Of a DNA stretch of 64,000 nt, positions 38,234-57,430 are shown one piece after another; within the stretch, counting starts at the first letter, position 1; every line of letters starts with the position of its first letter. The notes under the pieces are model-generated. The model was not told the origin of the DNA, ran no database searches, and was given only the letters and a program-made list of their open reading frames with translations. The stretch is from an uncultured Pelagibacteraceae bacterium. Its GTDB lineage: Bacteria > Pseudomonadota > Alphaproteobacteria > Pelagibacterales > Pelagibacteraceae. The stretch is from NCBI GenBank assembly GCA_902539195.1, contig CACBHZ010000004.1:3562-67561 (forward strand), in the 5' to 3' direction. A program made the position numbers and the translations under genes.

Positions 38234-38234
38234 T

Positions 38235-39263: not shown

Positions 39264-39265
39264 AT

Positions 39266-40180: not shown

Positions 40181-40184
40181 TTAA

Positions 40185-40646
40185 TTAAGACCAGACTTTA
40201 CCGTCAGGAAGAATAACTCCTTTAGTAATAATAAAACATCCAAAAGGTCGAGCATCTGTAGTGGTTACAATACAGTATGCTTTTTTTGCTTCCTCATAAA
40301 AATTTTGTCTTGAAATTGATCCAACTTTCCATTGGGGACCAGAATTATATTTTACTGCATCAATAAATTCTTTATGAGTTTCAGTTAGTTCCTCTGGTTT
40401 ATCATCTACTTCCATTCTAAGTACAGGTGAGCCCCCTTGTGATACAATAAAACTATCTAATGGAAAAACAGATAAAATTGCATTTGCTGCACTTTTAATA
40501 TCTACCCCATCTAAGCGAATTACATTTTTGTTGATAGAGTTTGCGGGAAAATTAGCATCAGCAAGAATAATTTTCTCACCATGACCCATAGATCTTAAAT
40601 TAAAAAGTAAATCAGGGCTTAAAACAGGGTTAATATTTATTAACAT
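40185..40646 (-). CDS. RbsD/FucU family sugar mutarotase/pyranase
   Basis: LSPDLL..L.SMGHG...LADANFP, RQNFYE.AK.AY. Confidence 0.9.
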   Translation of the reverse strand: MLININPVLSPDLLFNLRSMGHGEKIILADANFPANSINKNVIRLDGVDIKSAANAILSVFPLDSFIVSQGGSPVLRMEVDDKPEELTETHKEFIDAVKYNSGPQWKVGSISRQNFYEEAKKAYCIVTTTDARPFGCFIITKGVILPDGKVWS

Positions 40647-40664
40647 TACAAGATTATATTACAT

Positions 40665-40701
40665 AAAAAAAAAGGGTGGAATAAAAATTCCACCCTTTTT
40701 T
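40665..40701 (-). terminator. Rho-independent terminator-like hairpin after the sugar SBP gene
   Basis: AAAAAAGGGTGGAAT-aaaa-ATTCCACCCTTTTTT; a 9-nt U tract follows on the minus strand. Confidence 0.8.
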
Positions 40702-40720
40702 AAATGTTATATACTAATGA

Positions 40721-41653
40721 TTATTTAAAATCGTTAGCGTTTTCTTTTGTTACTAGTTGTGTTCCAGTATCAATGTTTGGATCAATACTTCCACCATTAG
40801 CTAGCTCAAGTGCATATTTAACACCGTAAGCACCCATGTTATATGAGAACTGAGCAATAGTTGCAGTCATTTCACCTTTTAAGATACTTGTAGCAGCATC
40901 TGGAGTTGCATCAAAACCAACAACAACAACATCATTCATATCTGCATCTTTAAGAGCTTGCATAGCACCTAGGCCCATATTGTCATTTGAAGCAAATATT
41001 GCTTTGATGTTAGGATTTTTCAAAATAATAGACTCAGTAACTGATCTACCTTTTGCAGTATCCCACTCAGCTGTTTGAGTAGCAACTATATTTAGACCGC
41101 AATTTTTAAATCCTTTAATTGCACCGTCTCTTCTTAGTAAAGCTGTTGATTGAGACTCTATTCCAGTCAAAATTGCAACATCTGAACCTTTTGGAGTTTT
41201 GTCACAAATGAATTTAGCAGCTAATTCTGCTCCATTCATATTGTTAGTTCCAATAAAAGTAACACCTTCATTGATCCCTTTTGTATCTACGAATACAACT
41301 GGAACACCACTTTTGATAGCGTCATCTACAATTGGAGCAAATGCATTTGGATCTCCCGGTGCAAGAGCTAAAGCATCAACACCTTTAGCAAGTTGGTCTT
41401 CAACTTGGTTAATTTGCGCTTGTACGTCACCTTCTTGAGGTGGCGCAACCAAGATTAACTTAACACCTAATTTTTTAGCTTCTTCTTCAGCACCTTTTGT
41501 AACAGAAGCCCAGAAAGGATTTCCAGACCCAGGACCTTTAATACTGAACAAGATTTTTTTACCATGACCGTCAGCAAAAGAAGCTGAAATCATGCTTATC
41601 GATAAAAAAATTGCTGATAATAAAACAACAATTTTTCTTGATAGTTCTCTCAT
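40721..41653 (-). CDS. Monosaccharide ABC solute-binding protein (RbsB-like, CUT2)
   Basis: NPFW..V..GA, FIGTNN, FASNDNM.LGA, VGFDA. Confidence 0.92.
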   Translation of the reverse strand: MRELSRKIVVLLSAIFLSISMISASFADGHGKKILFSIKGPGSGNPFWASVTKGAEEEAKKLGVKLILVAPPQEGDVQAQINQVEDQLAKGVDALALAPGDPNAFAPIVDDAIKSGVPVVFVDTKGINEGVTFIGTNNMNGAELAAKFICDKTPKGSDVAILTGIESQSTALLRRDGAIKGFKNCGLNIVATQTAEWDTAKGRSVTESIILKNPNIKAIFASNDNMGLGAMQALKDADMNDVVVVGFDATPDAATSILKGEMTATIAQFSYNMGAYGVKYALELANGGSIDPNIDTGTQLVTKENANDFK

Positions 41654-41760
41654 AAATTTCCCCTTTAATAATTATTAAAGCTCAATTTAATAAAATTTTT
41701 AAAAAAAATTCAACTGTTTACAAGGTCTCTTATGATAGCATCTATTCAACTTTGACGTGT

Positions 41761-42774
41761 TTATTTCCTCGTGCCGAAATCTCTTCTTAAAACATCCACG
41801 TAAACTGCTAATACAATGATCGAGCCAATCAATACTTGTTGCCAGAAAGAACTTACATCCATCAAATTAAGTCCATTTCTTAAAATTCCCATAATCATTA
41901 CTCCGGCAAAAACTCCAAGAACAGTTCCCCTACCACCAAAGAAACTAGCTCCACCAATTATACATGCTGCGATAGCATCCAATTCAGATTGTAATCCTGC
42001 ATTAGGATAACCAGAGTCTGTTCTTCCTGCTAAAATTAATGCTCCAATACCTGATAAAAATCCACAAAGTGAATAAACAATTATTAAAATTTTATTAACA
42101 TTAATTCCTGAAGCTCTTGCTGCGCTTGGGTTGCCACCAATTGCATAAATCCACTTTCCTGTTCGACTATGATTCAAGAAAACCCAAAAAACAAAATATA
42201 CAACAGCGATTAAAACTAAGCTTACGGGGAGATATTGAGATTTCTCTAATCCTAACCAAGTAAGATCAATTCTACCATGACCTAAGTACCTAACTTCATC
42301 GGTAAATCCACTTATGGGTGTTCCGCCTGATATTAAGTTTCCTGTTCCTCTAAAAATATAAAGAGTTCCTAAAGTCATTATAAAAGGATGAGGCATTCTT
42401 AAAAGTGTTATCCCCAAACCATTTATCAACCCGCATAAAAATCCAGCAAATAAAGGTACTAGAACAACTATAAACCAAGGTGCTCCAGCTTTAGCTACTA
42501 TTGCTAAAATCATCAATGAAAGCATCATTATTGAGCCAACTGATAGATCTATACCCGCAGTCACAATCACCATAAAAACACCTAAAGCTAACATTGATTG
42601 CCAAGATATTTGTTTGAATACGTTTGTTACATTTCTCCAAGACAAGAAGACATCTGGTTGCAAAATATGCATTACCAAGATCATGATAACTAATAATAGT
42701 AAAATCCCGTATTTTTCAAAATATGGAATAAGTTTTACATATAAGCTATCTTGTTTTTTTTCCTTGTCGTCCAT
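41761..42774 (-). CDS. Monosaccharide ABC permease (RbsC-like)
   Basis: AGIDLSVGS, PFIMTLG, YAIGGN..AARASGI, ELDAIAA..IGG.S; start ATG 42774. Confidence 0.92.
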   Translation of the reverse strand: MDDKEKKQDSLYVKLIPYFEKYGILLLLVIMILVMHILQPDVFLSWRNVTNVFKQISWQSMLALGVFMVIVTAGIDLSVGSIMMLSLMILAIVAKAGAPWFIVVLVPLFAGFLCGLINGLGITLLRMPHPFIMTLGTLYIFRGTGNLISGGTPISGFTDEVRYLGHGRIDLTWLGLEKSQYLPVSLVLIAVVYFVFWVFLNHSRTGKWIYAIGGNPSAARASGINVNKILIIVYSLCGFLSGIGALILAGRTDSGYPNAGLQSELDAIAACIIGGASFFGGRGTVLGVFAGVMIMGILRNGLNLMDVSSFWQQVLIGSIIVLAVYVDVLRRDFGTRK

Positions 42775-42775
42775 T

Positions 42776-43525
42776 TTATTTTTTTCCCATAATCCAACCA
42801 ATGACTTCATCTCTTGAAGTTTTATCTAATTGAGACTCAGCAAAGTTTGTTCCTTGAAAAAGTGCCATTACTCTGTCGCAAACAGTAAAAATATCATCCA
42901 TTCTATGACTTATTACTATAACACCTACGCCAGTACTTTTTAATTTGTTAATTAAGTCTAATACTTTTCCAACTTCTTTTATTGCTAAAGCAGCAGTTGG
43001 TTCATCCATTATAACAACTTTGGCATTAAATGCTGTTGACCTAGCTATTGCAACTGCTTGTCTTTGTCCTCCAGATAATTCCTCTACTTTTTGCTCAGCA
43101 CTTTTAACATTTATTTTTAGTTTCTCTAAGTGTGCACTCGTCATTTCTTGAATTTTTTTAAAATCTAAAAATTTTAAGAAGCCAATATTTTTTGTAGGCT
43201 CTCTTCCTAAAAAAATATTTTCTCCAATTGGTAAATTACCTGCTAGTGCAAGATCTTGATAAACCATTTCTAAACCTAAATTTTGAGAGTCTTTTGGACT
43301 ATCTAATACATGTTCTTTACCCTCAAAAAATAAAGCGCCTGCACTTGGTTTGTACAAACCAGATAAAACTTTCATTAGTGTAGATTTGCCTGCACCATTA
43401 TCTCCCACAACACCTAAACATTCACCCTCGTGTACTTTTAAATTTACATTTTCTAGAGCAGTTATTGTTCCAAAATACTTTGTGATACCTTTGGCCTCTA
43501 AGAGCAATTTATTTGTTGAAGTCAT
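42776..43525 (-). CDS. Monosaccharide ABC ATPase (single domain)
   Basis: [31 protein letters not shown]. Confidence 0.95.
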   Translation of the reverse strand: MTSTNKLLLEAKGITKYFGTITALENVNLKVHEGECLGVVGDNGAGKSTLMKVLSGLYKPSAGALFFEGKEHVLDSPKDSQNLGLEMVYQDLALAGNLPIGENIFLGREPTKNIGFLKFLDFKKIQEMTSAHLEKLKINVKSAEQKVEELSGGQRQAVAIARSTAFNAKVVIMDEPTAALAIKEVGKVLDLINKLKSTGVGVIVISHRMDDIFTVCDRVMALFQGTNFAESQLDKTSRDEVIGWIMGKK

Positions 43526-43547
43526 TTAATTTAAATTAAAAAAAAAA

Positions 43548-44567
43548 TTAATTAATTGCAACAGGTTTTGACCTTAAAAGATGAACAGTTTTTCTTAGAG
43601 CTTTTTTACAAAATCTTGGATTAAGATTTTTTGAAATCAATTTCATATCTTCAAAAACAATATTTCCCATTTCCTTGAATGCCTCATCTAAAGCACCCGC
43701 TCTATGTGCAGAAAATAAAACATTTTTTAATTTTCTTATTGGGTCATTTTTTTTAACTGGTTCTTCTGGAAAAACATCAAGCGCTGCATAAATATCACCT
43801 TTTTTAAGTCTATTTTTTAAATCTTTAAAATTAACGACTGCAGCTCTACTCATTAGTATAAAAAGTGAGTTTGATTTCATAAGATTGAGTAATTTTTTAT
43901 TAATCAATCCTTTGTTTTTCGTAGTAATTGCAGCAAGTATATAAATAACTTCACATTCTTTAAACATTTTTTTTAAAGTAATTGGTTTATATCCTTGATT
44001 AATTATTTTTTTGTTTGGTATCCAAGGATCATAGATATTTATTTTACTCGAAAATGGTTTCAATAATGGAACCAAAGCTTTCCCTAGGTCTCCAAATCCA
44101 AATAATCCAATTTTTTTGTCTGATAACAATGAAGCCTTAAGATTTCCATCTAATCCATACTTTTCCTTTTTATTAATGAAATCCTGATTTGCTCCATGAA
44201 TATTTCTAAGAAGAGAGAGTGTAAATCCAAGCGCAATTTCTGCGACTGGTTTTGAGAAAACAGGCGAAGTTGCAATAACGTGAATACCTTTATCAAAGCA
44301 ATAATTATAATCCATATTATCTAAAAAGTTGCTTTCTACATTTATTACTGCTTTTAACTTTTTTGCTTTTGTTAATAAAAATTTAGGAAGATCAGGCTGT
44401 CCAATTATAAATTTCGCTTTATGAATATTATTAATATAAAATTTCTGTTTATTTGTTTTTGGTGCGAAAATAAGCTTAAATTTATTTTTTAACTCATTTA
44501 ATTTAGGTTTTGAAAAAATAAGCTCCATGGTTCTTGGATAAGGGTCAACAATTGCAATATCTTTCAT
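43548..44567 (-). CDS. D-isomer-specific 2-hydroxyacid dehydrogenase family protein
   Basis: GLFGFGDLG, SRAAVV, DVFPEEP, SAHRAG. Confidence 0.85.
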   Translation of the reverse strand: MKDIAIVDPYPRTMELIFSKPKLNELKNKFKLIFAPKTNKQKFYINNIHKAKFIIGQPDLPKFLLTKAKKLKAVINVESNFLDNMDYNYCFDKGIHVIATSPVFSKPVAEIALGFTLSLLRNIHGANQDFINKKEKYGLDGNLKASLLSDKKIGLFGFGDLGKALVPLLKPFSSKINIYDPWIPNKKIINQGYKPITLKKMFKECEVIYILAAITTKNKGLINKKLLNLMKSNSLFILMSRAAVVNFKDLKNRLKKGDIYAALDVFPEEPVKKNDPIRKLKNVLFSAHRAGALDEAFKEMGNIVFEDMKLISKNLNPRFCKKALRKTVHLLRSKPVAIN

Positions 44568-44570
44568 GAT

Positions 44571-45725
44571 CTATAAGAGAATTTTTTTTACTTCTTCTTC
44601 TGTAAATCTTTTTGGCTTTTCACACTTAGTTTTTATTTTTTGAGGCACTCCAGTTGTTGCAGCCTTCATAGTAGATTCAATTATATCTAAAACATGAAGA
44701 GATAGCTCTCCAGAACATCGGTGTTTTTTCTTTTTTTCGATTGAATATAACATCTCAGACATTCCAACACTTCTGTAGTTTGCATTTGTTGGTGACTCAT
44801 TAGATCTACCACTTGCAGATGTAATATTTATTTTTCCTAAATGCATTTTATCAGTTTTATGTTCACCCCAACGACCACCTTCTGTAACAGAAATATAAAC
44901 AGATCCACCAAACATATTTGGATCAGGAACGATAATTGATCCTTTAGTTCCATAAAGTTCCATATGATTTCTTTGATGATTAATAACATCAAAGGATAGA
45001 GTGACCTGAATAATTGCTTCATTATGAAATTGAATTGTTGCCAAATAAGTAGTTGGCGTTTCAACCTTAAATGTTTTTCCTTTATTTGGACCTGCTCTAT
45101 AATTTCTTCTTTTAAATGCCGTTAATGTTCTTCCTTGCACCTGTTTAGCTGGCCCTAAAAGATTAACAAGCGTTGTAAAAAAATAAGGACCCATATCTAT
45201 TACTGGTCCTCCCTCTTTTTTATACCAAGATTCTGGTTTTGGATGAAAGTTTTCAACGCCAGGAAATGCAAATATTGCATTTCCAAGTTTGATTTGTCCA
45301 ATTAAATCAGAGTCAATTAATTCCTTTGCTTTTTGTCCACCTCCTCCAAGAAAAGTATCCGGCGCGTTACCAATGTATAATTTTTTTTGTTTTGCTAAAG
45401 CAACTAGCTCTTTTCCTTTTTGAAAGTATGTAGCTAATGGTTTTTCTGAATAAACATGCTTTCCTGCGTTTAATACTTTTTTTGATACAGAATAATGTGA
45501 TTGGGGAATTGTTAAATTTAAAATTACCTCGATATCTTTATCTTTTAGTATTTCATTAACAGTCATTGATTTGATATTGTATAATTTTGCACATTTTTCA
45601 GCTGCTTTTTGATTAATATCTGCACAAGCAACGATTTTGAAATTATTAAAATATTGGTGTCCTCTAAAATATGTTTCTGCGATATGGCCACATCCTATGA
45701 GACCAACCTTAAAAACTTTATTCAT
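44571..45725 (-). CDS. Gfo/Idh/MocA family oxidoreductase
   Basis: GLIGCGHI, NLTIP, HVYSEKP, APDTFLG, DMGPY. Confidence 0.9.
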   Translation of the reverse strand: MNKVFKVGLIGCGHIAETYFRGHQYFNNFKIVACADINQKAAEKCAKLYNIKSMTVNEILKDKDIEVILNLTIPQSHYSVSKKVLNAGKHVYSEKPLATYFQKGKELVALAKQKKLYIGNAPDTFLGGGGQKAKELIDSDLIGQIKLGNAIFAFPGVENFHPKPESWYKKEGGPVIDMGPYFFTTLVNLLGPAKQVQGRTLTAFKRRNYRAGPNKGKTFKVETPTTYLATIQFHNEAIIQVTLSFDVINHQRNHMELYGTKGSIIVPDPNMFGGSVYISVTEGGRWGEHKTDKMHLGKINITSASGRSNESPTNANYRSVGMSEMLYSIEKKKKHRCSGELSLHVLDIIESTMKAATTGVPQKIKTKCEKPKRFTEEEVKKILL

Positions 45726-45730
45726 GAATT

Positions 45731-47575
45731 TTAGACACCTTGTCTTTGCTTTGATTTTCCTTCTTTATGAAGTTTTAATGCATCTTCATTTTCTTTTGTT
45801 GATGGCATTTCTAAAGTGGGACTTTCCCAGTAAGCTGAACCCTCTAGCCACTCATAAGAATGAGTTTTTATTGAAATTAAGTAAGTTACATCAGATTTTT
45901 TAGCTCTTTTAAATGCTTCTTCTAATTCAGAAATAGATGATACCTCCTCAGATTTTGCTCCCATACTCTCTGCATGTTTAGCAAAATTAACAGGTACAAG
46001 ATTTGGAGCTTTTGAACTATTAAATAGACAATTAAATTCTTTCCCGCCTTTAAATAATTGTAGCCTGTTAATAACTGCATGGCCTCCATTGTCACATAAA
46101 ACTATTATTAATTTATTATTTGTTATAACTGATGAATAAATATCTGAATTAAAAAGTAAATAAGATCCATCTCCTACAAAAGCTATTACTTCTTTATCTG
46201 GGTTCGCCATTTTAACTCCTAATGCACCAGAAATTTCATAACTCATGCAGCTAAAACCCCATTCGGTTTCATGAGTATTTAATTCTTTTGGCCTCCAAAT
46301 TTGTACAACTTCACCAACCAATCCTCCTGCCGCAGTAACAGCAATGTCCGTTGGATCTGAATTACGATATATTGCTCCTACAGCATGTGCATAACTAGGT
46401 AGTTCTTGATTAGTTGGTCCACTTTCTTTATCAACATAATCATTCCAATTTTTTAATTCATCTCTTGATTTTTTATGCCATTCATCAGGTGCTTTCCAAT
46501 CTCCCAAAGCATTTGATAGCTCTTGTAAGCTTACTTTTGCATCACCTATTACTGATTGCGCCAAATGTTTGCTAGCATCAAATCTAGAGACATTAACACT
46601 GACAAGTGAAAAGTCTGGGTTCTCAAAATTTGCCCATGACCCAGTTGTAAAATCAGCTAACTTTGTTCCAACAGCAATAGCTAGGTCAGTTTGTTTTGCT
46701 AAATTATTTGCTGCTTTGCCACCAAGACCACCTATGGGACCCAAAAAATGAGAGTGGTCTCTCTTCATTGTAGAGTAGCCCATAACTGTTTGTGTAACTG
46801 GTATATTGTGTTTAATTGCAAAATTACTTAGATCTTCCATTGCATCAGAGTAGAAAACTCCTCCACCTGAAATCAATAAAGGATTTTTAGATTTTTTAAT
46901 TAGCTCAGCTGCTTGTTTTATTTGAAAATCATCAGGTCTTGGTCGTCTAATATTATGAACTCTCTCTTTAAAAAATTCTTCAGGATATTCGTATGTTTCA
47001 CCTTGAACATCTTGTGATAATGATAAGCAAGCTGGTCCACAATCTGCTGGATCTAACATTGTTTGGATTGCTTGAGGTAATGTTTGTAAGATTTGTTCTG
47101 GTCTTGTAATTCTATCAAAATATTTTGTTACTGGTTTGAAAGCATCATTCTGAGTAATGCCAGGATTATTAAAATGCTCAACTTGTTGTAGAACCGGGTC
47201 AGGCAATCTGTTTGCATATGTATCTCCAGGTAAAAATAAAATTGGAAGTCTATTGCTCATAGCAACAGCCGAGGCTGTAACCATATTTGTAGATCCTGGT
47301 CCAACTGAACTAGTTGCAACAAAAAATTGTTTTCTTCTTTTAGCTCTAGCATATGCTATTCCAGTCAGAGCCATATTTTGCTCATGATGCCCTCTATAAG
47401 TTGGTAATTTATCTTGATTTTCTTGTAGAGCTTGTCCTAAACAAGCAACATTGCCATGTCCAAAAATACCAAAAGCTCCAGCAAATAACTGCTCTTTTTT
47501 ACCATCTATTAAAATTTTTTGAGCAATAAGATGTTTTATTATTGCATGTGCACAAGTGAGCTTTATTTTTTTCAT
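45731..47575 (-). CDS. iolD: 3D-(3,5/4)-trihydroxycyclohexane-1,2-dione acylhydrolase (ThDP-dependent)
   Basis: IFGHGNV, NRLP...LPGD, PDPVLQQ, DPADCGP, FSCM.YEI, GDGSY, INRLQ. Confidence 0.93.
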   Translation of the reverse strand: MKKIKLTCAHAIIKHLIAQKILIDGKKEQLFAGAFGIFGHGNVACLGQALQENQDKLPTYRGHHEQNMALTGIAYARAKRRKQFFVATSSVGPGSTNMVTASAVAMSNRLPILFLPGDTYANRLPDPVLQQVEHFNNPGITQNDAFKPVTKYFDRITRPEQILQTLPQAIQTMLDPADCGPACLSLSQDVQGETYEYPEEFFKERVHNIRRPRPDDFQIKQAAELIKKSKNPLLISGGGVFYSDAMEDLSNFAIKHNIPVTQTVMGYSTMKRDHSHFLGPIGGLGGKAANNLAKQTDLAIAVGTKLADFTTGSWANFENPDFSLVSVNVSRFDASKHLAQSVIGDAKVSLQELSNALGDWKAPDEWHKKSRDELKNWNDYVDKESGPTNQELPSYAHAVGAIYRNSDPTDIAVTAAGGLVGEVVQIWRPKELNTHETEWGFSCMSYEISGALGVKMANPDKEVIAFVGDGSYLLFNSDIYSSVITNNKLIIVLCDNGGHAVINRLQLFKGGKEFNCLFNSSKAPNLVPVNFAKHAESMGAKSEEVSSISELEEAFKRAKKSDVTYLISIKTHSYEWLEGSAYWESPTLEMPSTKENEDALKLHKEGKSKQRQGV

Positions 47576-47627
47576 TATTCTATATATAAATATTTAACTT
47601 TTAACAATTAAACACAATTTAAAAAAT

Positions 47628-49070
47628 ATGTATAGCAATTTTGGTCAATTCATTGATGGTCAGTGGCAACAAGCAGAAAAAAAAGAAACTTATAAAGTTA
47701 TCAATCCAGCAACAGAAGAAGTTTTAGGTGAAGCATCAAAAGCGTCCTCTGTTGACGTTCAAAAAGCATTAAAATCAGCAGAGAAAGGACTCGAAACTTG
47801 GAAAAATACCACTCCATGGCAGAGGTCTTATGTAATAAGAAAAATTGCAGATTTGATGCGTGAAAGAAAAGATGTATTAGCTAAATGGCTTACACTTGAA
47901 GTTGGAAAACCTCTTAAAGAAGCAATTGGAGAAGTTGGTGGTGGAGCAGATATATTTGAATGGAATGCAGAAGAAACTAAGAGAATTTATGGTGAAACAT
48001 TACAAAGTAGATTTCCAGAAACAAGAGTTCATGTTTACTATCAGCCAGTAGGTGTTGTAGCAGCACTTGTGCCATGGAATTTTCCTATAGTTTTAGCATC
48101 TAGAAAAATTTCAACTGCACTGGCTGCTGGTTGTTCAGTTATTTGTAAGCCAGATGTAATTACGCCTGGAGCAGTTATGGAACTTGTAAATATTTGTAAA
48201 GATGCTGGAGTTCCTGATGGAGTAGTCAATTTATTATCTGGAGACCCAGCTGAAATATCAAATGAATTACTTGAATCAGATATAATAAAAAAAGTTTCTA
48301 TAACTGGCTCAACACGTGTTGGAAAATTAATACTTAAAAAAGCTGCAGATAAAGTTCAAAGAGTTACAATGGAATTAAGTGGTCATTCTCCATTTATAGT
48401 ATTTGACGATGTTGACATGAATAAAGTTGCAGATATGGCAATAACAGCAAAATTTCGTAATAATGGTCAAGTTTGTATATCCCCAAATAGGTTTTACATT
48501 CAAGAAACTAGAAAAGAAGAATTTGTAAATGCTTTTGTAGATAGAGCAAAAAAATTAAAAATTGGAAATGGAATGGATGAAGGCACTGACTTAGGACCTT
48601 TAACAACAGCAAAACGTTTGGAAGAAATTGAAAAATTAGTCGAAACTACAAAGAGTGAAGGCGCAAAAGTTGTTTTAGGAGGGGGTAGACCTTCAGGATT
48701 TAATAAAGGTTATTATTTTGAACCAACTGTATTTGATGAAGTGCAGGACAATTTTACAATTATGAAAGAAGAACCTTTTGGTCCCTTAGTGCCCGTTTTA
48801 ACTTTCAAGGATTTTGACGAAGTAGTAGAGAGAGCAAATAATAATGACCTGGGACTTTGTAGCTATTTATATACAAACTCAATGGACAAAGCTAATAGAG
48901 CATCAGAGATGATGGAAACCGGTTGTGTAGCAGTTAATACAGCTGCAGTTGCAGTTGCTGAAGCTCCATTCGGTGGAATAAAACAAACCGGTTATGGTCG
49001 TGAAGGTGGATCTATGGCTATAAAAGATTACCTTAATATAAAGTATACCCATATGGGTCTAAAAACCTGA
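47628..49070 (+). CDS. NAD-dependent aldehyde dehydrogenase (SSADH / alpha-ketoglutarate semialdehyde dehydrogenase-like)
   Basis: PWNFP, TGSTRVGK, MELSGH.P, GQVC, EEPFGP, PFGG.K.TG.GREGG. Confidence 0.92.
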   Translation: MYSNFGQFIDGQWQQAEKKETYKVINPATEEVLGEASKASSVDVQKALKSAEKGLETWKNTTPWQRSYVIRKIADLMRERKDVLAKWLTLEVGKPLKEAIGEVGGGADIFEWNAEETKRIYGETLQSRFPETRVHVYYQPVGVVAALVPWNFPIVLASRKISTALAAGCSVICKPDVITPGAVMELVNICKDAGVPDGVVNLLSGDPAEISNELLESDIIKKVSITGSTRVGKLILKKAADKVQRVTMELSGHSPFIVFDDVDMNKVADMAITAKFRNNGQVCISPNRFYIQETRKEEFVNAFVDRAKKLKIGNGMDEGTDLGPLTTAKRLEEIEKLVETTKSEGAKVVLGGGRPSGFNKGYYFEPTVFDEVQDNFTIMKEEPFGPLVPVLTFKDFDEVVERANNNDLGLCSYLYTNSMDKANRASEMMETGCVAVNTAAVAVAEAPFGGIKQTGYGREGGSMAIKDYLNIKYTHMGLKT

Positions 49071-49074
49071 TTAA

Positions 49075-49866
49075 ATGAGAAAAAATAAAGCCAAAGAAAT
49101 AATTAAAAATGGCAAAGCTGTAATCAATGGTTGGTTACAAATTCCAAGTACTGTTTCTGCAGAAACAATGGCTCAACAAGGATGGGACTCATTAACAATT
49201 GATATGCAACACGGGCTTGTTGATTACACGAATGCAATGCCAATGATGCAAGTGATTTCAGCGACTGAAGTCGTGCCTTTGGCAAGAGTTAATTGGAATG
49301 AACCTGGTCAAATTATGAAAATTTTAGATGCTGGATGTTATGGAATAATTTGCCCAATGGTAAGTAATCGAAAAGAAGCAGAAAGATTTGTTCAAGCATG
49401 TAAATATCCACCAGATGGATATAGAAGTTTCGGTCCAATGAGAGGTTTAATCTATGGAGGGCCTGATTATGGAGATCGTGCAAACGATGAAATATTAAAA
49501 ATGGCTATGATTGAAACTAAAGAAGCTTTAGAAAATCTTGATGAGATTATGAGTGTCCCAGGCCTTGATGGTATCTACATAGGGCCTGCTGATTTAAGTT
49601 TGGCTATAGGAGAAAAGCCTGGTTTTGACAAAGGTGAAGATACTAAAGCTTATTCAGAAATACTTAGAATATTAGAGCATGCAAAAAAAAACAATATATT
49701 TGCTGGAATTCATAACGGAAGCACTGACTATGCAAAAAAAATGATTGAAAAAGGTTTTCAATTTGTAACAGTTGGAGCAGACTCCAGATTTATAAGTGCG
49801 GGTGCGAAAAATACAGTTGAAAATTTAAAAGGCACAGTGAAATCAGAATTATCTAAAGCCTATTAA
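49075..49866 (+). CDS. HpcH/HpaI family class II (pyruvate-type) aldolase
   Basis: IDMQHG, LDAG..GIICPMV, YPP.G.RSFGP, MIET, IGPADLS. Confidence 0.92.
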   Translation: MRKNKAKEIIKNGKAVINGWLQIPSTVSAETMAQQGWDSLTIDMQHGLVDYTNAMPMMQVISATEVVPLARVNWNEPGQIMKILDAGCYGIICPMVSNRKEAERFVQACKYPPDGYRSFGPMRGLIYGGPDYGDRANDEILKMAMIETKEALENLDEIMSVPGLDGIYIGPADLSLAIGEKPGFDKGEDTKAYSEILRILEHAKKNNIFAGIHNGSTDYAKKMIEKGFQFVTVGADSRFISAGAKNTVENLKGTVKSELSKAY

Positions 49867-49890
49867 TAAATAAAGTATAAACTTTTACGT

Positions 49891-50850
49891 ATGAAAAAAA
49901 TCTTAATAATAGGATCAATACATAATCATGGTATTGATTTACTAAAAGGAAATAGAAATTTTGAATTTGAAGTTGTAGACAATACAGATACAGAATTTTT
50001 GAAAGATAAAATAAAAGACTGTGATGGAATAAGTATTAGAACATCTAAATTGTCAAAAGAAATTATAGACTCAGCTAAGAATTTAAAAGTGATATCTAGA
50101 CATGGTGTAGGCTATGACAACATAGATCTTAAAGCAACTAAGCAAAACAATATCACATTAGCAATAACAGCTACAGCAAATGCTCAAGCTGTAGCAGAAC
50201 ATGTTTTATTCATGCTATTCAGCATTGCAAAAAGAAATAATATGTACAACGAGACTGTAAAAACTGGAAAGTTCAATGATAGAACTAAGCTTCCTAAAAC
50301 AATTGAGTTATGGAGTAAAAGTATCTTGATTGCAGGTTTTGGTCGTATTGGAAAATGCTTACTTAAAAAATGTAAGGGTTTAGAAATGAACATTTTTGTT
50401 TATGATCCTTTTGTCAGCGAAGAGGAAATTAAAAAAGTTGGTGGTACTAAAATTAATGATTTAAATGAGAGTTTAAATAAAATGGATGCAATTTCAATTC
50501 ATATGCCTCTAAACGAAAATACAAAACATTTAATCAATTATGAAATGATAAAAAAAATGAAAAAAAATTGTATTTTAATTAATGCTGCAAGAGGTGGTAT
50601 TATTAATGAGGAAGATCTTAATAAGGCTTTAAATGAAGATTTAATTTTTGGTGCAGGGCTTGATGTTTTTGAAAAGGAGCCTCCATCTTTAGATAATCCA
50701 TTGCTAAAAAATGAGAAAGCATTTTTAAGTCCACATTCAGCGGTATTTACCGAAGAATGTTTGTCTAGAATGGGTATTGAAACAGTCCAAAATATTATTG
50801 ATTTTTTTGATAATAAATTGGAAAAGTCAAAAATAGTAAAAATCTCATGA
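49891..50850 (+). CDS. D-isomer-specific 2-hydroxyacid dehydrogenase (SerA-like, no ACT domain)
   Basis: SRHGVGYDNID, GFGRIG, INAARGG, DVFE.EP, SPHSA. Confidence 0.9.
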   Translation: MKKILIIGSIHNHGIDLLKGNRNFEFEVVDNTDTEFLKDKIKDCDGISIRTSKLSKEIIDSAKNLKVISRHGVGYDNIDLKATKQNNITLAITATANAQAVAEHVLFMLFSIAKRNNMYNETVKTGKFNDRTKLPKTIELWSKSILIAGFGRIGKCLLKKCKGLEMNIFVYDPFVSEEEIKKVGGTKINDLNESLNKMDAISIHMPLNENTKHLINYEMIKKMKKNCILINAARGGIINEEDLNKALNEDLIFGAGLDVFEKEPPSLDNPLLKNEKAFLSPHSAVFTEECLSRMGIETVQNIIDFFDNKLEKSKIVKIS

Positions 50851-51347
50851 GCTTAAAATTAAAAAATTTTGGATTGTTAGAGTTTCTTATCATTATATCA
50901 GCTGTTTATGTTGTAGGAATGTTAATATGGACAGCGAGTACAAGGCCTGAAGTTGAAGCTCGTGCAAATTTAGTAAAAGAAAATCATAAAAAAGTTGTCG
51001 ATTTTATTAATGGCGAAATTAATAATTGTGGAAATAATAATGAAGGGAAGATAACAGTTTGGGGTGATCCATGTAATGCTGAATGGATAGCTGAAAAGGT
51101 TGTTAATCATATAAATGATAATCTTAAAATTGAAAATCCATTTTCAGATGACAATAAAGTAAAAACAGACCCTGACCCGAGAATAAAAGCAGAGGGAAAA
51201 GCTGGTCAGTCAGTAGAAATGGGTGTTATTTTTATAATGTCGTCAAATTTTCTAGCAGAACCAGGATCAGAATGGATTGTTGGTACTTGTTTTAAATCTC
51301 CATGTGTGGCTGCTGGTAATAATGAATTAACTTCTTTATATAGATAG
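50847..51347 (+). CDS. Pilin-like membrane-anchored protein with degenerate prepilin motif
   Basis: Basic leader KLKN then FGLLEFLIIISAVYVVGMLIW (F1, E5, hydrophobic helix); four Cys including C-terminal TCFKSPC. Confidence 0.55.
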   Translation: MSLKLKNFGLLEFLIIISAVYVVGMLIWTASTRPEVEARANLVKENHKKVVDFINGEINNCGNNNEGKITVWGDPCNAEWIAEKVVNHINDNLKIENPFSDDNKVKTDPDPRIKAEGKAGQSVEMGVIFIMSSNFLAEPGSEWIVGTCFKSPCVAAGNNELTSLYR

Positions 51348-52250
51348 CTAATTATTTTCAATTTCTAAATTAGCGCTTTTTAAAGTCTCAATTAGATATT
51401 TGTATCCGATTTTAGCATATTCAAAAGGATTTGCTTTTGCGGGATCTTGCTCCGCTTCTACAACTAACCATCCAGAATAATTTTGTTCTTTTAGCAAGTC
51501 AAAAAAAGGTTTGTAATCAATACAACCATCTCCTGGAACAGTGAAGGCTCCTTCTAAAAAAGCCTGTCTAAAACTATAATCGTGATTTAACGAATTATCT
51601 AAAACATCTTTTCTCATATCTTTGCAATGTATGTGAATTATTCTTTCTTTAAATTCTTTATAAATTTTCAAACTATCCCCTTTTGCAAATAACATGTGTC
51701 CAGTATCTAAAGTTAGTTTGACACTACCATCTGTGTTTTCTAATAATCTTCTTGTATCCTCTTCACTTTCAATGCAAGTTCCCATGTGATGATGGTAAGC
51801 AAGAGGCATGTCTTGATCCTCTAGATATTTTCCCATTTCTGAAATTTTTTTGTAATATTTTTTAGATTCATCTAAATCCATTCTAGGTCTTTTAGATAAA
51901 TTTATATTTGGATCGCCTTGAATGGAACCATAAACTTCGGCAAAAACCATGCAGGGAGCTTTACAATCTTGAAATAGTTTCAATTGGTTTTGAATTTTTG
52001 ATTTTTCCTCTTCAAAAGTATTTTTTCTTAAATTTGCTCCATACCAACCTGAGCATAATTTTAAATTATATTTATTTAATATAGGAATTAATTCTTTTGA
52101 TGTTTTTGGAAATTTCCCCCCAGACTCTATTCCTTTAAATCCTGCTTCACTAGCTTCGGAAAGACATTGTTCAAGCGGAGTATCACCACCAAGCTCAGGC
52201 ATGTCATCATTGCTCCAAGCTATTGGGGCTATACCTAATTTTACTGACAT
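51348..52250 (-). CDS. iolE: Myo-inosose-2 dehydratase
   Basis: PIAWSNDDMPELGG, YHHHMGT, DTGH, HCKD, FTVPGDG, VEAEQDP. Confidence 0.95.
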   Translation of the reverse strand: MSVKLGIAPIAWSNDDMPELGGDTPLEQCLSEASEAGFKGIESGGKFPKTSKELIPILNKYNLKLCSGWYGANLRKNTFEEEKSKIQNQLKLFQDCKAPCMVFAEVYGSIQGDPNINLSKRPRMDLDESKKYYKKISEMGKYLEDQDMPLAYHHHMGTCIESEEDTRRLLENTDGSVKLTLDTGHMLFAKGDSLKIYKEFKERIIHIHCKDMRKDVLDNSLNHDYSFRQAFLEGAFTVPGDGCIDYKPFFDLLKEQNYSGWLVVEAEQDPAKANPFEYAKIGYKYLIETLKSANLEIENN

Positions 52251-52276
52251 AAATAATAGTTTTGTTATGATATTAG

Positions 52277-53422
52277 ATGCTTCAAAAAATTAAACCTAAA
52301 AAATTTAAACTTGGAATTGTTGGAGGCGGACCTGGATCTTGGATTGGGCATGTTCATAGAATTTCATCTAGATATGATGACAAATATGAAATCGTTGCAG
52401 GGGTATTTTCTAGAAGTGTTGATAAATCTAGGAAATTTGGACAAAGTATAGGTTTAGATAAATCTAGATGTTATTCAAATTACAAGGAGATGTCTGAAAA
52501 AGAAGCGAAAAGAAAAGATGGTATTACTGTTGTAGCAATAATGACTCCACCATCAAGTCATCAAATTATTGCGGAGAATTTTATAAAAAAAAACATACAT
52601 GTAATTTCAGACAAACCATTTGCTGGAAATCTTGAGCAGGGAAAAAAACTATATAAAGCGATAAAAAATAACAAAAAAATTAAATATGCACTGACTCACA
52701 ACTATTCATCTTATCCAATGGTTAGAGAGGCAAAAAATTTAGTTGAAAAAGGAAAAATTGGAAAAGTTGAATATATCAATGTCGAATATATTCAGGATTG
52801 GACAGATGGAAATAAAATTTCAAAAACAAATTCAAAAAAGGTTTTTAAATGGAAAGTTGAAAAAAAAATTGTTGGTGTATCAGCAGTTCTCAATGAAATA
52901 GGATCACACGCATATCATCTAGCAATTTATATTACAGGCCTTAAAGGAGAAAAACTGATAGCCGATGTAAGTAAATATTCGAAGGACGTTAAAATGGATA
53001 ATAACGCACAAGTTTTTGTTAATTTTAAAAATGGTGCTAAAGGAATTGTATGGACATGTGTAACAGCTAAAGGTGGTGTTTATGGTTTAAGAATTAGAGT
53101 ATATGGTTCTAAAGGAAGTTTAGAATGGGTTCAAAATGATCCAAATTATTTAAAATTTAATCCAAGCAAAGGAGCAGTAAAGTTTTTAGAAAGAGGATAT
53201 ACAAAAGCAAATTTTTCAAAAAAATTTTCCAGAGTAAAATTTGGTCACCCTGAAGGATATTTAGATGCTTTTGCAAATATATATAAGGAATTTGCTGAAT
53301 ATTTAAAAACAAATACAAAAAAAAGATTTTATTTTCCTAACGAAGAAGAGGGTTTGGAGACTGCTAAATTCATTGATGCATGCAAGAAATCATCATTAAA
53401 AAAAAAATGGGTAAAAATTTAA
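52277..53422 (+). CDS. Gfo/Idh/MocA family oxidoreductase (inositol-region type)
   Basis: VGGGPGSWIG.VHR, ISDKP, HNYS.YPMVREA, IGSHA, GHPEGYL.AFANIY. Confidence 0.9.
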   Translation: MLQKIKPKKFKLGIVGGGPGSWIGHVHRISSRYDDKYEIVAGVFSRSVDKSRKFGQSIGLDKSRCYSNYKEMSEKEAKRKDGITVVAIMTPPSSHQIIAENFIKKNIHVISDKPFAGNLEQGKKLYKAIKNNKKIKYALTHNYSSYPMVREAKNLVEKGKIGKVEYINVEYIQDWTDGNKISKTNSKKVFKWKVEKKIVGVSAVLNEIGSHAYHLAIYITGLKGEKLIADVSKYSKDVKMDNNAQVFVNFKNGAKGIVWTCVTAKGGVYGLRIRVYGSKGSLEWVQNDPNYLKFNPSKGAVKFLERGYTKANFSKKFSRVKFGHPEGYLDAFANIYKEFAEYLKTNTKKRFYFPNEEEGLETAKFIDACKKSSLKKKWVKI

Positions 53423-54420
53423 TTAACATTGCATTATTCGGTTTGGGAAGAATAGGGCTAATGCATGCAAATAATTTAATAAATAATAAAAATTTTAATC
53501 TTAAATATATTTTTGATGTTAATAGAAAACTTGCAAAAAAAGTTTCAAAAAATCTAAATTGTCAAAATATTGAAAGTCCTCATATAGCATATAAAGATAA
53601 AAAAATTGATTGTATTTTTATATCTTCTACTACATCAACTCATCTTAAATTTATATATGAAAGCATAAAAAATAATAAAACAGTATTTTGTGAAAAACCT
53701 TTAGATTTAAATTTAAGAAAAATTCAAAATTACGAAAAAAAAATAAATAAATTTAATCATAAAATTCAAATTGGATTTAATAGAAGATACGATCCAGGTC
53801 ATAGTTCTCTAAAAAATAATTTAATAAAAGGCAAGATAGGAAAGCTAGAGAAAATTATTATTACTAGCAGAGATCCAGCTGCTCCATCTATAAATTATTT
53901 AAAAGCCTCAGGTGGTATTTTTAAAGATATGATGATCCATGATTTCGATCTAGCAAGATATTATGCGGGTAAAGATGAATTTGTTTCTATATTTGCCACA
54001 GGGAGCAATATTTCCAATAAATACTTCAATAAACTTAAAGATTTCGAGCTTGCTACGGCAATTTTGAAAACAAAAAATGGTGTTCAATGTATTATTAGTA
54101 ATTCTAGACATTGTAGTTTTGGATATGATCAAAGAGTAGAGCTTTTTGGAAGCAAAGGAATGATTATTTCTGATAATATCAAAGAAAATGAGATTAGTTT
54201 GTACTCTAATAAAAGTACGAATGCACGATCAAGCTTTAAACATTTTTTTATAGAAAGATACGATCAGGCATATAAAGAACAGTTAAATGATCTTGCTAAA
54301 TTATTCAGATCAAATTTAAGACCTAAAAGTGGTTTTATTGATGGAAAGATTTCAATACAAATTGCAGAGAGTGCTATCCGGTCATTAAAATCAAAAAAAT
54401 TTGAAAAAATAAAATATTAA
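53407..54420 (+). CDS. iolG: Myo-inositol 2-dehydrogenase
   Basis: GLGRIG, FCEKP, GFNRRYDP, ITSRDP, SGGIFKDMMIHDFD, GYDQRVE; start ATG 53407. Confidence 0.9.
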   Translation: MGKNLINIALFGLGRIGLMHANNLINNKNFNLKYIFDVNRKLAKKVSKNLNCQNIESPHIAYKDKKIDCIFISSTTSTHLKFIYESIKNNKTVFCEKPLDLNLRKIQNYEKKINKFNHKIQIGFNRRYDPGHSSLKNNLIKGKIGKLEKIIITSRDPAAPSINYLKASGGIFKDMMIHDFDLARYYAGKDEFVSIFATGSNISNKYFNKLKDFELATAILKTKNGVQCIISNSRHCSFGYDQRVELFGSKGMIISDNIKENEISLYSNKSTNARSSFKHFFIERYDQAYKEQLNDLAKLFRSNLRPKSGFIDGKISIQIAESAIRSLKSKKFEKIKY

Positions 54421-54525
54421 AAATCAACTTTAGGTTGAATACAACCTGCTTCTTTACAATCTGAATAAATTTATGTTAGCTTTAATGTTTAAAAGTTAAC
54501 TTTTATTTAAGAGAGGAAATTAAAA

Positions 54526-55449
54526 ATGAAAACAATAAAGAACTTTATATTAGCTGTTGCTGCATGGGCAATGATGTCTGTATCAGCATTAGCAACTGAT
54601 ATAATTGTTGTTTCACATGGACAAGCTAATGACCCTTTTTGGTCGGTAGCTAAAAATGGAGTTGATGCTGCTTGTAAAGATATGGGAGTATCTTGCAAAT
54701 ACACTGCGCCTGGAACTTTTGACATGGTTGAAATGGCAAAACTAATTGATAACGCTGTATCACAAAAACCAAAAGGTATTGTAATTACTTTACCTGATGC
54801 AGCTGCATTAGGAAAATCTGTCAAAGCAGCAATAGCTGCAGGTATACCAGTAGTTTCAATGAACTCTGGTTCGGATGACTATGCATCATTAGGAATTAGT
54901 GCACACGTAGGTCAAACTGAATTTGAAGCTGGCGTTGGTGGCGGACAAAAAATGAAAGCTGCTGGAGGAAAAAAAGCTTTATGCGTTAACCACGAAGTTG
55001 GAAACGTAGCGCTTGATAGAAGATGTGCAGGTTTCAAAAAAGGTTTTGGTGGATCTGTTGATATTCTTGGAACATCAAATGACCCAACTGAAATTCAAAA
55101 AGCTGTTGCTGCAAAATTAGGTGGTGGATACGACACTATTCTAACTTTAGGAGCTGGTTTATCTGGTGAAGCAGCACTAAAAGCTTTAGAAGCTGCTGGT
55201 AAAGTTGGAAATGTTAAATTAGGAACATTTGATATGTCACCTAATATGTTAAAAGCTGCTGCTGCAGGTAAAGTAGAGTTTTTAATTGACCAGCAACAAT
55301 ATCTACAAGGTTATTTGCCAATAGCTATTTTTGCACAATACATGAGATGGGGAACAATGCCTGCTGGTGTAGTTATGACTGGACCTGGATTTGTTACTCC
55401 TGATAATGCTGCTAAAGTAATTAAATGGGCAGCACAAGGTTATAGATAA
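54526..55449 (+). CDS. Sugar (probably inositol) ABC solute-binding protein
   Basis: Signal peptide, HGQANDPFWSV.KNG, IDQQQYLQGY; lies directly after iolG; GAGG RBS. Confidence 0.9.
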   Translation: MKTIKNFILAVAAWAMMSVSALATDIIVVSHGQANDPFWSVAKNGVDAACKDMGVSCKYTAPGTFDMVEMAKLIDNAVSQKPKGIVITLPDAAALGKSVKAAIAAGIPVVSMNSGSDDYASLGISAHVGQTEFEAGVGGGQKMKAAGGKKALCVNHEVGNVALDRRCAGFKKGFGGSVDILGTSNDPTEIQKAVAAKLGGGYDTILTLGAGLSGEAALKALEAAGKVGNVKLGTFDMSPNMLKAAAAGKVEFLIDQQQYLQGYLPIAIFAQYMRWGTMPAGVVMTGPGFVTPDNAAKVIKWAAQGYR

Positions 55450-55460
55450 AATCTATATTT

Positions 55461-55495
55461 AAGGCCTGACTAAATTTTATAGTCAGGCCTTTTTT
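55461..55495 (+). terminator. Stem-loop with T tract after the SBP gene
   Basis: AAGGCCTGACTA-N7-TAGTCAGGCCTT followed by TTTT. Confidence 0.8.
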
Positions 55496-55505
55496 CAAAA
55501 TTTAA

Positions 55506-56633
55506 ATGTCATTAAAATCAAAAAGTATTTCATCAAAAAGTAGTCTTAATGTAGACGAGCGTCTAAAAAAAATATCACCGCTAAGAGTTTTATTGAATAG
55601 GCCTGAGTTAGGTGCATTAGGTGGCTCAATACTTGTATTTATATTTTTTGGAATTGTAGCTGGCGATACTGGTATGTTTAGTGCCTATGGAATGCTTAAT
55701 TTCCTCGATGTTTCAGCTAATTTAGGAATTATAGCAATAGCAGCAGCGATGTTAATGATTGGCGGTGAATTTGATTTGTCAATTGGATCCATGATTGGAT
55801 TTGCTGGAATTTGTATAGCAATTCCTGCAATTTATTGGGGTTGGCCTTTATGGATGAGTATAGTTTTTGCTTTCGCTATGGCAGTATTGGTTGGATACTT
55901 TAATGGCATAATGGTTGTCAAAACTGGTTTGCCATCTTTTATTGTAACACTTGCAATGCTTTTTATTTTAAGAGGTTTGACATTAGCAATAACAAGATTG
56001 ATTACTGGTAGAACTCAAGTTCCAGGACTAAGAGTATTAATTGAAGATGATCCATTAGCTTGGTTATTTGCTACAGATACTTTTAAATGGCTTTTTACTT
56101 GGTTGGGATCATTAAAATTAATTGAACTAAGAACTGATGGAACTCCTCTTGCAACTGGAATACCTCCATCAGTTATTTGGTTTATTGCATTAACATTGTT
56201 TGCAACATGGATATTGATGAAAACAAGATACGGTAATTGGATCTTCGCATCCGGAGGCGATAAGGTTGGAGCAACAAATGTGGGTGTGCCTGTTGGAAGG
56301 GTAAAAATAAGTCTCTTTATTGGTACAGCAGTCGCTTCTACTATTTTTGCTTGTATTCAAGTATTGGATGCGGGTTCTGCAGATACTATGAGAGGTACTT
56401 TAAAAGAATTAGAAGCTATTGCAGCTGCTGTTGTTGGTGGTTGTCTCTTAACTGGTGGATATGGATCTGCAATAGGTGCAGCTTTTGGTGCGATTATATT
56501 TGGGACTGTATCTATGGGAATATTTTACACAGATGTTGACACTGATTGGTTTAAAGTTTTCTTAGGAGCAATGATGTTGATAGCTGTAGTGTTTAATAAC
56601 TATATCAGAAAGAAAGTAACTGAGAGTAAATAA
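55506..56633 (+). CDS. Sugar (inositol) ABC permease
   Basis: [45 protein letters not shown]. Confidence 0.92.
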
Positions 56634-57430
56634 TGTCTGACTATCTCGTTCAATTTAATAATATTAGTAAGTTTTTTGGGAAGGTAATAGCGCTTAAAGA
56701 TGTCACTATGAGATTAAAAAAAGGTGAGATCATGTGCTTACTTGGAGATAATGGAGCAGGAAAATCGACTTTAATTAAAACTTTAGCAGGTGTTCATAAG
56801 CCTGATGAAGGAGAAATTATATTTGAAGATAACAAAATTGTTTTTGACTCACCTAAAGATGCTTTAGATATTGGTATAGGAACAGTTTATCAAGATCTAG
56901 CATTAGTTCCTTTAATGAGTGTTACTAGAAATTTTTTTATGGGAAGAGAGCCTCAAAAAGGTATTCCTTTCCTTAAAACTTTTGATGTGGAGAAAGCAAA
57001 TAAGATAGCGGCAGATAGAATGGGACAGATAGGTATCGATGTTAGAGATCCATCTCAGGCAGTTGGAACTATGTCTGGCGGTGAAAGACAATGCCTAGCA
57101 ATATCACGAGCTATATATTTTGGAGCAAAAGTTTTAGTTTTAGATGAACCAACTTCTGCTTTAGGAGTTCATCAAGCATCAATGGTATTAAAATATATTG
57201 TAAAGGCTGCGTCTGAGGGATTGGCTGTAATTTTAATTACTCATAATGTACATCATGCTTACCCTGTTGGTAATAGTTTCACTGTACTTAACCGAGGAAA
57301 AAGCATGGGAACATTCCAAAAAAAAGAGATTTCTAGAGAAAAGCTTCTTAGTATGATGGCTGGTGGTGAAGAATTAGACAAACTTGAAGTCGAACTTCAA
57401 GAAATGGATAGAATTCACAACAAAAATTAG
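56633..57430 (+). CDS. Sugar (inositol) ABC ATPase
   Basis: [25 protein letters not shown]. Confidence 0.95.

Follow-up and report, generated by a model that had tools for sequence, protein, structure and literature searches.

Inositol breakdown is taught as a single route, in which the IolG, IolE and IolD families yield 5-deoxy-D-glucuronate and IolB, IolC and an aldolase complete the degradation. Here, we describe an inositol-type gene cluster in a 64,000-nucleotide stretch of DNA from an uncultured Pelagibacteraceae bacterium (contig CACBHZ010000004.1; the whole stretch is called the window below). The cluster combines an iolG-like gene, iolE, iolD and an ATP-binding cassette (ABC) importer with a trio of genes for an aldehyde dehydrogenase (ALDH), an HpcH-family aldolase (HpcH) and a D-2-hydroxyacid dehydrogenase (HADH). 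HpcH and HADH very probably process the IolD product without IolB and IolC. For the full scheme that we favor, a kinase-free oxidation followed by aldol cleavage and probably starting from myo-inositol, we estimate a probability of about 55%. Judged by its protein families, the route would be a pathway variant assembled from known enzymes.

The closest described system is the canonical myo-inositol pathway (B. subtilis IolG-IolE-IolD-IolB-IolC-IolJ-IolA). The window resembles it in IolE and IolD, which pass their family cut-offs, in IolG, which lies at its cut-off, in the ABC importer, in the MmsA/IolA encoded in the genome and in malonate semialdehyde as the predicted shared product. It differs in that IolB, IolC, DUF2090 and IolJ are missing and HpcH, HADH and ALDH stand in their place, in an IolD of a separate subfamily, and in the C3 product, which is dihydroxyacetone phosphate in the canonical pathway and predicted to be hydroxypyruvate (or pyruvate) here. 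The proteobacterial form of the canonical pathway has an IolC-DUF2090 fusion (PMC9007349). The Roseobacter-type iol cluster of Ruegeria sp. TM1040 shares the IolD motifs C45, D478 and V501 as well as an ABC transporter (38, 50 and 57% identity) with the window, but has an isomerase, a kinase and a phosphate aldolase, none of which the window contains.

Three further systems are comparable in part. The inositol pathway II of Thermotoga maritima (IolG-IolM-IolN-IolO) runs without IolE and IolD and ends via 2-keto-3-deoxygluconate kinase and Eda. Like the window it represents an alternative to IolB/IolJ, whereas the window cluster relies on IolE and IolD and lacks a linked kinase. In the galactarate/glucarate branch (GarD-GarL-GarR), an aldarate is converted to a 2-oxo acid that is split by an HpcH aldolase, and Dahms-type non-phosphorylative sugar-acid routes follow a comparable logic. 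In that branch, however, a dehydratase creates the 2-oxo group and pyruvate is the product, while the window links the aldolase to HADH and not to such a dehydratase. The nearest solved relative of the window aldolase is SwHKA from Sphingomonas wittichii RW1 (PDB 6R62; 40% identity, TM 0.87), for which the available sections of PMC10099721 mention no natural pathway.

Cluster layout and linkage within the family

The genes of the cluster are arranged as follows (window coordinates and strand):

45731..47575, - strand: IolD, thiamine diphosphate-dependent trihydroxycyclohexanedione hydrolase of a non-canonical subfamily (TIGR04377, 799 bits, cut-off 715)
47576..47627, no strand: 52-bp intergenic gap between the head-to-head iolD and ALDH genes
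47628..49070, + strand: ALDH, similar to succinate-semialdehyde and alpha-ketoglutarate-semialdehyde dehydrogenases (PF00171; under every NCBIfam cut-off shown)
49075..49866, + strand: HpcH, HpcH/HpaI class II aldolase of an SwHKA-like subfamily (PF03328)
49891..50850, + strand: HADH, SerA-like without regulatory domains (PF02826/PF00389)
51348..52250, - strand: IolE, myo-inosose-2 dehydratase (TIGR04379, 398 bits, cut-off 290), convergent with the trio
53380..54420, + strand: IolG-like inositol 2-dehydrogenase (TIGR04380, 352.5 bits, cut-off 355)
54526..55449, + strand: sugar ABC solute-binding protein, similar to inositol/rhizopine binders (NF052284, 320 bits, cut-off 420)
55506..56633, + strand: ABC permease (PF02653; 50% identity to the permease of the Ruegeria sp. 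TM1040 iol cluster)
56633..57430, + strand: ABC ATPase (PF00005; 57% identity to the ATPase of the TM1040 iol cluster)

A first-pass annotation of this DNA had placed iolG, iolE, iolD, the importer and the trio here, with iolD and the ALDH gene divergent across 52 bp, and we could confirm this arrangement. The trio genes are separated by 4 bp (ALDH to HpcH) and 24 bp (HpcH to HADH). A promoter scan of the iolD-ALDH gap (46 sites, 60.4 expected) and a terminator scan gave results not above those of shuffled sequences. The iolG product of a relative (G051) lies above the TIGR04380 cut-off with 396.5 bits.

The assembly containing the window is 880 kb in size and 63% complete, with a GC content of ca. 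30%. No KduI/IolB, DUF2090, IolC or class II aldolase/IolJ family member was found in it, and the PfkB protein of the window passes as a ribokinase. The earlier statement that the window lacks IolB, IolC, IolJ and IolA was correct and holds for the first three across the assembled genome; IolA/MmsA is encoded on another contig (C18; 708 bits, cut-off 448.5). Our family set comprised 301 genomes, namely this one and 300 that are at least 85% complete (including the unpublished G124), with genome sizes of 0.9 to 1.5 Mb among family members. The family is probably SAR11 (Pelagibacterales), and sequences of the window also occur in seawater libraries. A true iolB was present in none of the 301; PF04962 gave a single weak match, to a 188-residue open reading frame (ORF) beside apparent nucleotide-sugar genes and outside any iol cluster. 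IolC did not exceed its cut-off in any of 53 genomes, and small samples yielded neither DUF2090 (PF09863; 0 of 6 family genomes) nor a class II aldolase (PF01116; 0 of 5). Control genomes gave matches in every absence search, and the absence of iolB and iolC is real at the family level. MmsA (TIGR01722) scored above cut-off in five of five family genomes and is unlinked to iol.

We detected iolD in 146 of the 301 genomes (142 above cut-off). An HpcH orthologue was present in 143 of these and in only 8 of the 155 genomes without iolD (both genes 143, iolD only 3, HpcH only 8, neither 147), counts that are given without a p-value and in which kin are non-independent. The HpcH query had matched 164 genomes, 13 of which (best E 1e-44 to 1e-49, all without iolD) were excluded as belonging to another subfamily; G223, with a match split into two pieces, was retained. 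The linkage of iolD and HpcH thus goes far beyond co-location in a single genome.

For the remaining genes, a near-complete subset was used (52 iolD genomes that are at least 92% complete and 20 iolD-negative genomes). All 52 encode iolE and an HADH orthologue (at least 54% identity), while the 20 iolD-negative genomes gave no orthologue of iolE, HpcH or HADH, two of them encoding HADH-like proteins at 47-48%. Every iolD, HpcH, iolE and HADH match in the 52 genomes is an open frame free of internal stops. HADH lies within ca. 550 bp of iolE in all 52, despite 5-22 kb or a rearrangement separating it from HpcH in some; even in G123, where HADH and HpcH are more than 20 kb apart, HADH remains beside iolE. 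Two other genes were considered and set aside. A short-chain dehydrogenase/reductase (SDR) of the PRK06198 type was ruled out as an essential part by its occurrence in 21 of the 52 iolD genomes and its absence from the window's own genome. A ROK kinase homologue is found in all 52, mostly within ca. 25 kb of iolD, and also in 8 of the 20 iolD-negative genomes, which rules it out as iol-specific. In one subgroup (L197:881-1696, L199, L211), HpcH and HADH are set apart by a PanB-like gene and by 5-22 kb of inserted oxygenase-like, TRAP and ABC genes.

Proposed pathway and its enzymes

The substrate of an HpcH aldolase has to be a 2-oxo acid; the only linked source would be conversion of C1 to a carboxylate followed by oxidation at C2. 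In step 1, C1 of 5-deoxy-D-glucuronate would be oxidized to yield 5-deoxy-D-glucarate, either by the ALDH or, less certainly, by the product of gfo0, an oxidoreductase gene behind iolD, acting on the furanose; elsewhere, an SDR could replace gfo0 in this role. In step 2, HADH would oxidize the D-configured C2 hydroxyl, a configuration that appears to suit this enzyme family, to give (3S,4R)-3,4-dihydroxy-2-oxoadipate. HpcH would then cleave the C3-C4 bond in step 3, releasing hydroxypyruvate and malonate semialdehyde and pulling the uphill oxidation, and in step 4 MmsA, encoded elsewhere in the genome, would convert malonate semialdehyde to acetyl-CoA and CO2. Overall, the route would yield acetyl-CoA, a C3 oxo-acid and four NAD(P)H, and the listed steps would consume no ATP. 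Because the fate of hydroxypyruvate lacks a clear enzyme, the term ATP-free should be limited to the steps up to cleavage. A reversed IolD ring opening combined with aldehyde oxidation would give the identical diacid.

HpcH is predicted to cleave a 2-oxo-4-hydroxy diacid. It scores 201 bits against SwHKA and 143 bits against HpaI, and its structural model (pLDDT 89) has SwHKA as the top Foldseek match and also matches HpaI. The fold and the metal-binding and catalytic residues are retained (W20, H46, S118, R123, E147, D173), H46, S118, R123, E147 and D173 being shared with SwHKA. According to the accessible part of its description, SwHKA accepts hydroxypyruvate and was crystallized with it (PMC10099721). 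In a Tabrizicola/Rhodobacter clade (L043, L062, L065, L071, L072, L077, L081, L083, L085, L087, L088), a trio-type HpcH stands orphaned among unrelated genes and is nested within trio-linked copies.

In case of HADH, the highest score was obtained with TIGR01327 (273 bits), followed by glyoxylate reductase (205) and GhrB (163), all under cut-off. For SerA the cut-off is 454 bits, and TIGR01327 is covered only at positions 1-307 of 525. By sequence, its nearest relatives are SerA-like enzymes, and it is predicted to be the C2 oxidase. SerA-type enzymes run in the oxidative direction, in good agreement with the earlier proposal of HADH as the oxidizing step.

In a quick tree that carries a composition warning on AT-rich rows, the IolD proteins of the family, of the trio clusters and of a third, roseobacter cluster type split from iolBC-linked IolD with 99% SH-aLRT. 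At the three motif positions, the non-canonical enzymes have C45, D478 and V501, the canonical ones (including a Priestia enzyme) G, E and C. The TM1040 cluster, which encodes IolC, IolB and a class II IolJ-like aldolase, carries the same C45/D478/V501 motifs, and because it does, the non-canonical IolD fits ordinary 5-deoxy-glucuronate chemistry; membership in this subfamily does not in itself call for a different substrate. What is described for the myo-inositol genes of Phaeobacter inhibens (PMC9007349, section 9) matches the TM1040-type cluster, and the two organisms appear to share this cluster type. No solved IolD structure was found for an active-site comparison. IolE of the trio clade is used by two canonical operons, which disfavors mirror-image IolE selectivity. 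The third iol cluster type (L192, L193, L194, L233), from roseobacters and paracocci, shares the non-canonical IolD motifs and has a divergent IolB (140 bits, under cut-off), an unfused IolC and a class II aldolase.

Neither this route nor inositol catabolism in SAR11 was described in the open-licence papers that we searched. In their available portions, PMC12789548 refers to inositol only in the medium, PMC12262181 has no bearing on the subject, a D-pinitol paper (PMC9788770) deals with canonical iol genes in a different Erwinia strain and PMC2597717 contains no Roseobacter or SAR11 data. A large survey, as far as its accessible text goes, counted clusters only with three of iolB, iolC, iolD and iolE, and clusters with just iolD and iolE fell outside it because of this definition (PMC9430895). 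The novelty here is a large group of marine bacteria for which our searches gave no canonical ending, leaving the module as the only candidate. As redundancy with a canonical route is thereby removed, the family genomes make the module directly testable. It is possible, if rather doubtful, that about half of the SAR11 species carry an undescribed kinase-free inositol route with hydroxypyruvate as the natural product of the HpcH aldolase. If true, a dominant ocean bacterium would have a hidden cyclitol pathway in ca. half of the surveyed species (146/301), which would revise the view of what SAR11 takes from algae. For an aldolase subfamily so far known chiefly through biocatalysis, this would supply a natural role and substrate, and the C3 oxo-acid would be one transamination away from serine in cells that need external glycine or serine.

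The module outside the family and competing explanations

Outside the family, we analyzed 80 of 189 loci related to the HpcH protein of Rhizobium leguminosarum Vaf-108, with up to 10 kb fetched per side, a sample that is biased to that protein. On the Vaf-108 plasmid, iolE-iolD stands head to head with ALDH-HpcH-HADH in the same divergent layout as in the window. iolD or iolE was present at 54 of the 80 loci, spread over alpha-, beta- and gammaproteobacteria, with Mesorhizobium, Caballeronia, Pantoea and Acetobacter among the hosts. These 54 iol-linked loci contain HADH in 50 cases, the PRK06198 SDR in 48, ALDH in 46, iolB in 2 and iolC in 1. Shinella zoogloeoides (L226) carries the closest plasmid-borne IolD (55%) in a third gene order, namely iolD, another gene, HADH and HpcH, followed by an ABC transporter with 47-64% similarity to that of the window. 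Whole-genome searches (50 of 59 chosen genomes) found iolB above cut-off in 47 genomes and at least two iolD genes in 45. Outside the family, the module is a second cluster beside a canonical one and usually redundant. The first-pass idea that the trio marks genomes without iolBC consequently stood for the family, where HpcH and HADH track iolD and iolE, and failed beyond it, where iolB is mostly kept. Some trio clusters have desaturase-family genes as neighbors (L034:1240-3399; L053), which we take to be MocD-like and which suggest upstream O-demethylation of methyl-inositols.

This redundancy is the first of several observations that weigh against the full scheme; others concern the C1 step. 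The ALDH, assigned to the C1 step in the first-pass annotation, proved not to be inositol-specific. It is present as a single copy in all 72 near-complete family genomes, including the 20 without iolD, where it is 74-80% identical and occupies the same variable site. It is missing from 8 of the 54 outside clusters, and four of five genomes with an ALDH-less cluster encode nothing closer than 40-45%. Its closest plasmid relative belongs to a non-inositol cluster. In a quick tree, its subfamily includes both trio and non-inositol enzymes, with the sister group and the orthology to trio ALDH not resolved; a sister relationship to trio ALDH seen in a first tree was lost after two non-inositol homologues were added. 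HpcH and HADH, not ALDH, are the inositol-specific core. Because the ALDH is a core gene here and dispensable elsewhere, the C1 step is the least certain of the scheme, and the enzyme is a candidate C1 oxidase or general semialdehyde dehydrogenase. It falls outside the GabD-like clade (TIGR01780, 497 bits, cut-off 646). In GabD, R164, R282 and S445 bind the carboxylate; both arginines are kept and the serine is replaced by Ala442. In the iolD-negative genome G097 (L238), the ALDH stands alone between the same flanks as in the window and falls in the tree with copies from iol-positive genomes, an arrangement suggesting that the iol genes were lost on both sides. Rhizobium sp. ACO-34A (L247:10001-12797) has a glycerate kinase gene after a close homologue of the ALDH, and another HpcH homologue 7.5 kb away.

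The same direction is taken by observations on the aldolase and on its presumed product. SwHKA is selective for the (3S,4S) isomer according to the accessible text (PMC10099721), whereas our scheme would, by Cahn-Ingold-Prelog reasoning, need (3S,4R). The window aldolase groups with homologues from galactarate clusters (52-56% identity), for which pyruvate is the expected product. Cleavage to hydroxypyruvate and malonate semialdehyde, as originally proposed, gains from the proximity to SwHKA and the presence of MmsA and loses from the occurrence of the subfamily in galactarate clusters. The aromatic Phe210 of SwHKA, which provides a CH-pi contact, corresponds to His213 in the window aldolase; histidine is common to all groups including the galactarate-linked one, and His213 was dismissed as an indicator of hydroxypyruvate use. 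A glycerate kinase was not detected in any of five genomes, which leaves hydroxypyruvate without a clear fate. A serine/glycine role of hydroxypyruvate, also part of the first-pass annotation, is speculation and fared poorly: an SgaA/BhcA-like aminotransferase is encoded in the window's own genome but, among relatives, in only 8 of 52 with and 5 of 20 without iol genes, and it is unlinked to iol. Further, Cedecea colo, which has only the trio and whose draft genome yielded no iolB, is inositol-negative by API 20E fermentation (PMC7074957, Table 2), although such a strip, which scores fermentation, tests an oxidative route only weakly.

Many of these points would be accommodated by the main rival, which keeps the kinase-free oxidative logic and assumes another cyclitol as the true substrate, with a ring-opened product unfit for IolB, IolC and IolJ. 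A deoxy-inositol of the quercitol type would lead via 4-hydroxy-2-oxoadipate to pyruvate and malonate semialdehyde by ordinary HpcH chemistry. Alternatively, the (3S,4S) diacid preferred by SwHKA would arise from a neo-inositol-like stereoisomer or from myo-inositol oxidized at C5. This explanation fits the enzyme families equally well, and the second iolDE set found nearly always beside a kept iolB outside the family hints at another substrate. In its favor are also the separate IolD group with its three changed residues, the sister relationship of the aldolase to galactarate-cluster enzymes, the missing glycerate kinase, the negative C. colo result and the several extra Gfo, SDR and TIM-barrel genes that accompany the clusters. 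Nevertheless, we consider it unlikely. These IolD motifs are also found in a complete iolD-iolC-iolB-fba-iolG cluster that matches the P. inhibens description, trio-clade IolE serves in canonical operons and trio-linked IolG proteins pass TIGR04380. Some genomes hold two canonical clusters, showing that duplication alone needs no new substrate, and for a streamlined marine cell that has a single iol cluster, the most common cyclitol would be the likelier target.

It is improbable that the genes merely form a co-inherited sugar-island block, with IolG, IolE and IolD in a partial pathway or side role and the trio as unrelated cargo. The solitary ALDH of G097 between the same flanks does point to a variable island, and kin share gene blocks. 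However, iolD, HpcH and HADH occur together in differing orders in alpha-, beta- and gammaproteobacteria, including the third order in Shinella, HADH and iolE are still adjacent after separation from HpcH, and the matches in the 52 genomes are intact frames throughout. Least probable of all is a phosphorylating finish by non-homologous enzymes (e.g. the ROK kinase with an unrecognized isomerase and aldolase) that leaves HpcH and HADH to another sugar acid: the presence of the ROK kinase in all 52 iolD genomes, mostly near iolD, the core status of the ALDH and the 8 genomes with HpcH but no iolD would fit, but the kinase also occurs in iolD-negative genomes and is absent from non-SAR11 trio loci, an IolB-type isomerase, DUF2090 and a class II aldolase were not found, HADH stays beside iolE and HpcH beside iolD despite rearrangements, and the same gene set recurs in three proteobacterial classes.

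Further genes of the locus

Three additional genes lie directly behind or within the cluster:

44571..45725, - strand: gfo0, Gfo/Idh/MocA oxidoreductase (PF01408/PF22725), 5 bp behind iolD
50847..51347, + strand: 166-residue ORF with a type-IV-pilin-like N-terminus, between HADH and iolE and overlapping the HADH stop codon
52277..53422, + strand: gfo1, accessory Gfo/Idh/MocA oxidoreductase (PF01408)

The gfo0 gene lies outside the span covered by the first-pass annotation. It followed iolD at all 15 fetched loci of the family, and ten of ten iolD-negative genomes gave no match, in searches without a positive control of their own. It is a candidate for an extra inositol dehydrogenase or for the C1 (aldose) dehydrogenase. 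In case of gfo1, present at 2 of the 15 fetched iolD loci of relatives, a dehydrogenase for another inositol isomer is probable. The pilin-like ORF has no Pfam match, and an Atlas look-alike cluster carries PF07963 N_methyl at 0.94. It is missing from some relatives and in many others moves with HADH-iolE, even after rearrangement; it is probably a passenger.

The solute-binding protein has 4RU1, which we take to be a myo-inositol complex, as its top PDB match (Z 33.8, 36% identity), and is 89-96% identical over seven family loci. Seawater metatranscriptome contigs from four studies covered 29-30 of 30 cluster bins; such contigs cannot show transcription and were not used as evidence. The contig depth of the solute-binding gene (54526-55449) was far above that of its neighbors in three of four RNA runs, in data that cannot rank genes. 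Behind iolD-gfo0, a second sugar module occupies window positions 37358-44567 on the - strand and contains an ABC transporter, RbsD/FucU, a ribokinase, an aldo-keto reductase, a ROK kinase and a second D-2-hydroxyacid dehydrogenase, the latter being present at only 4 of 15 relative loci.

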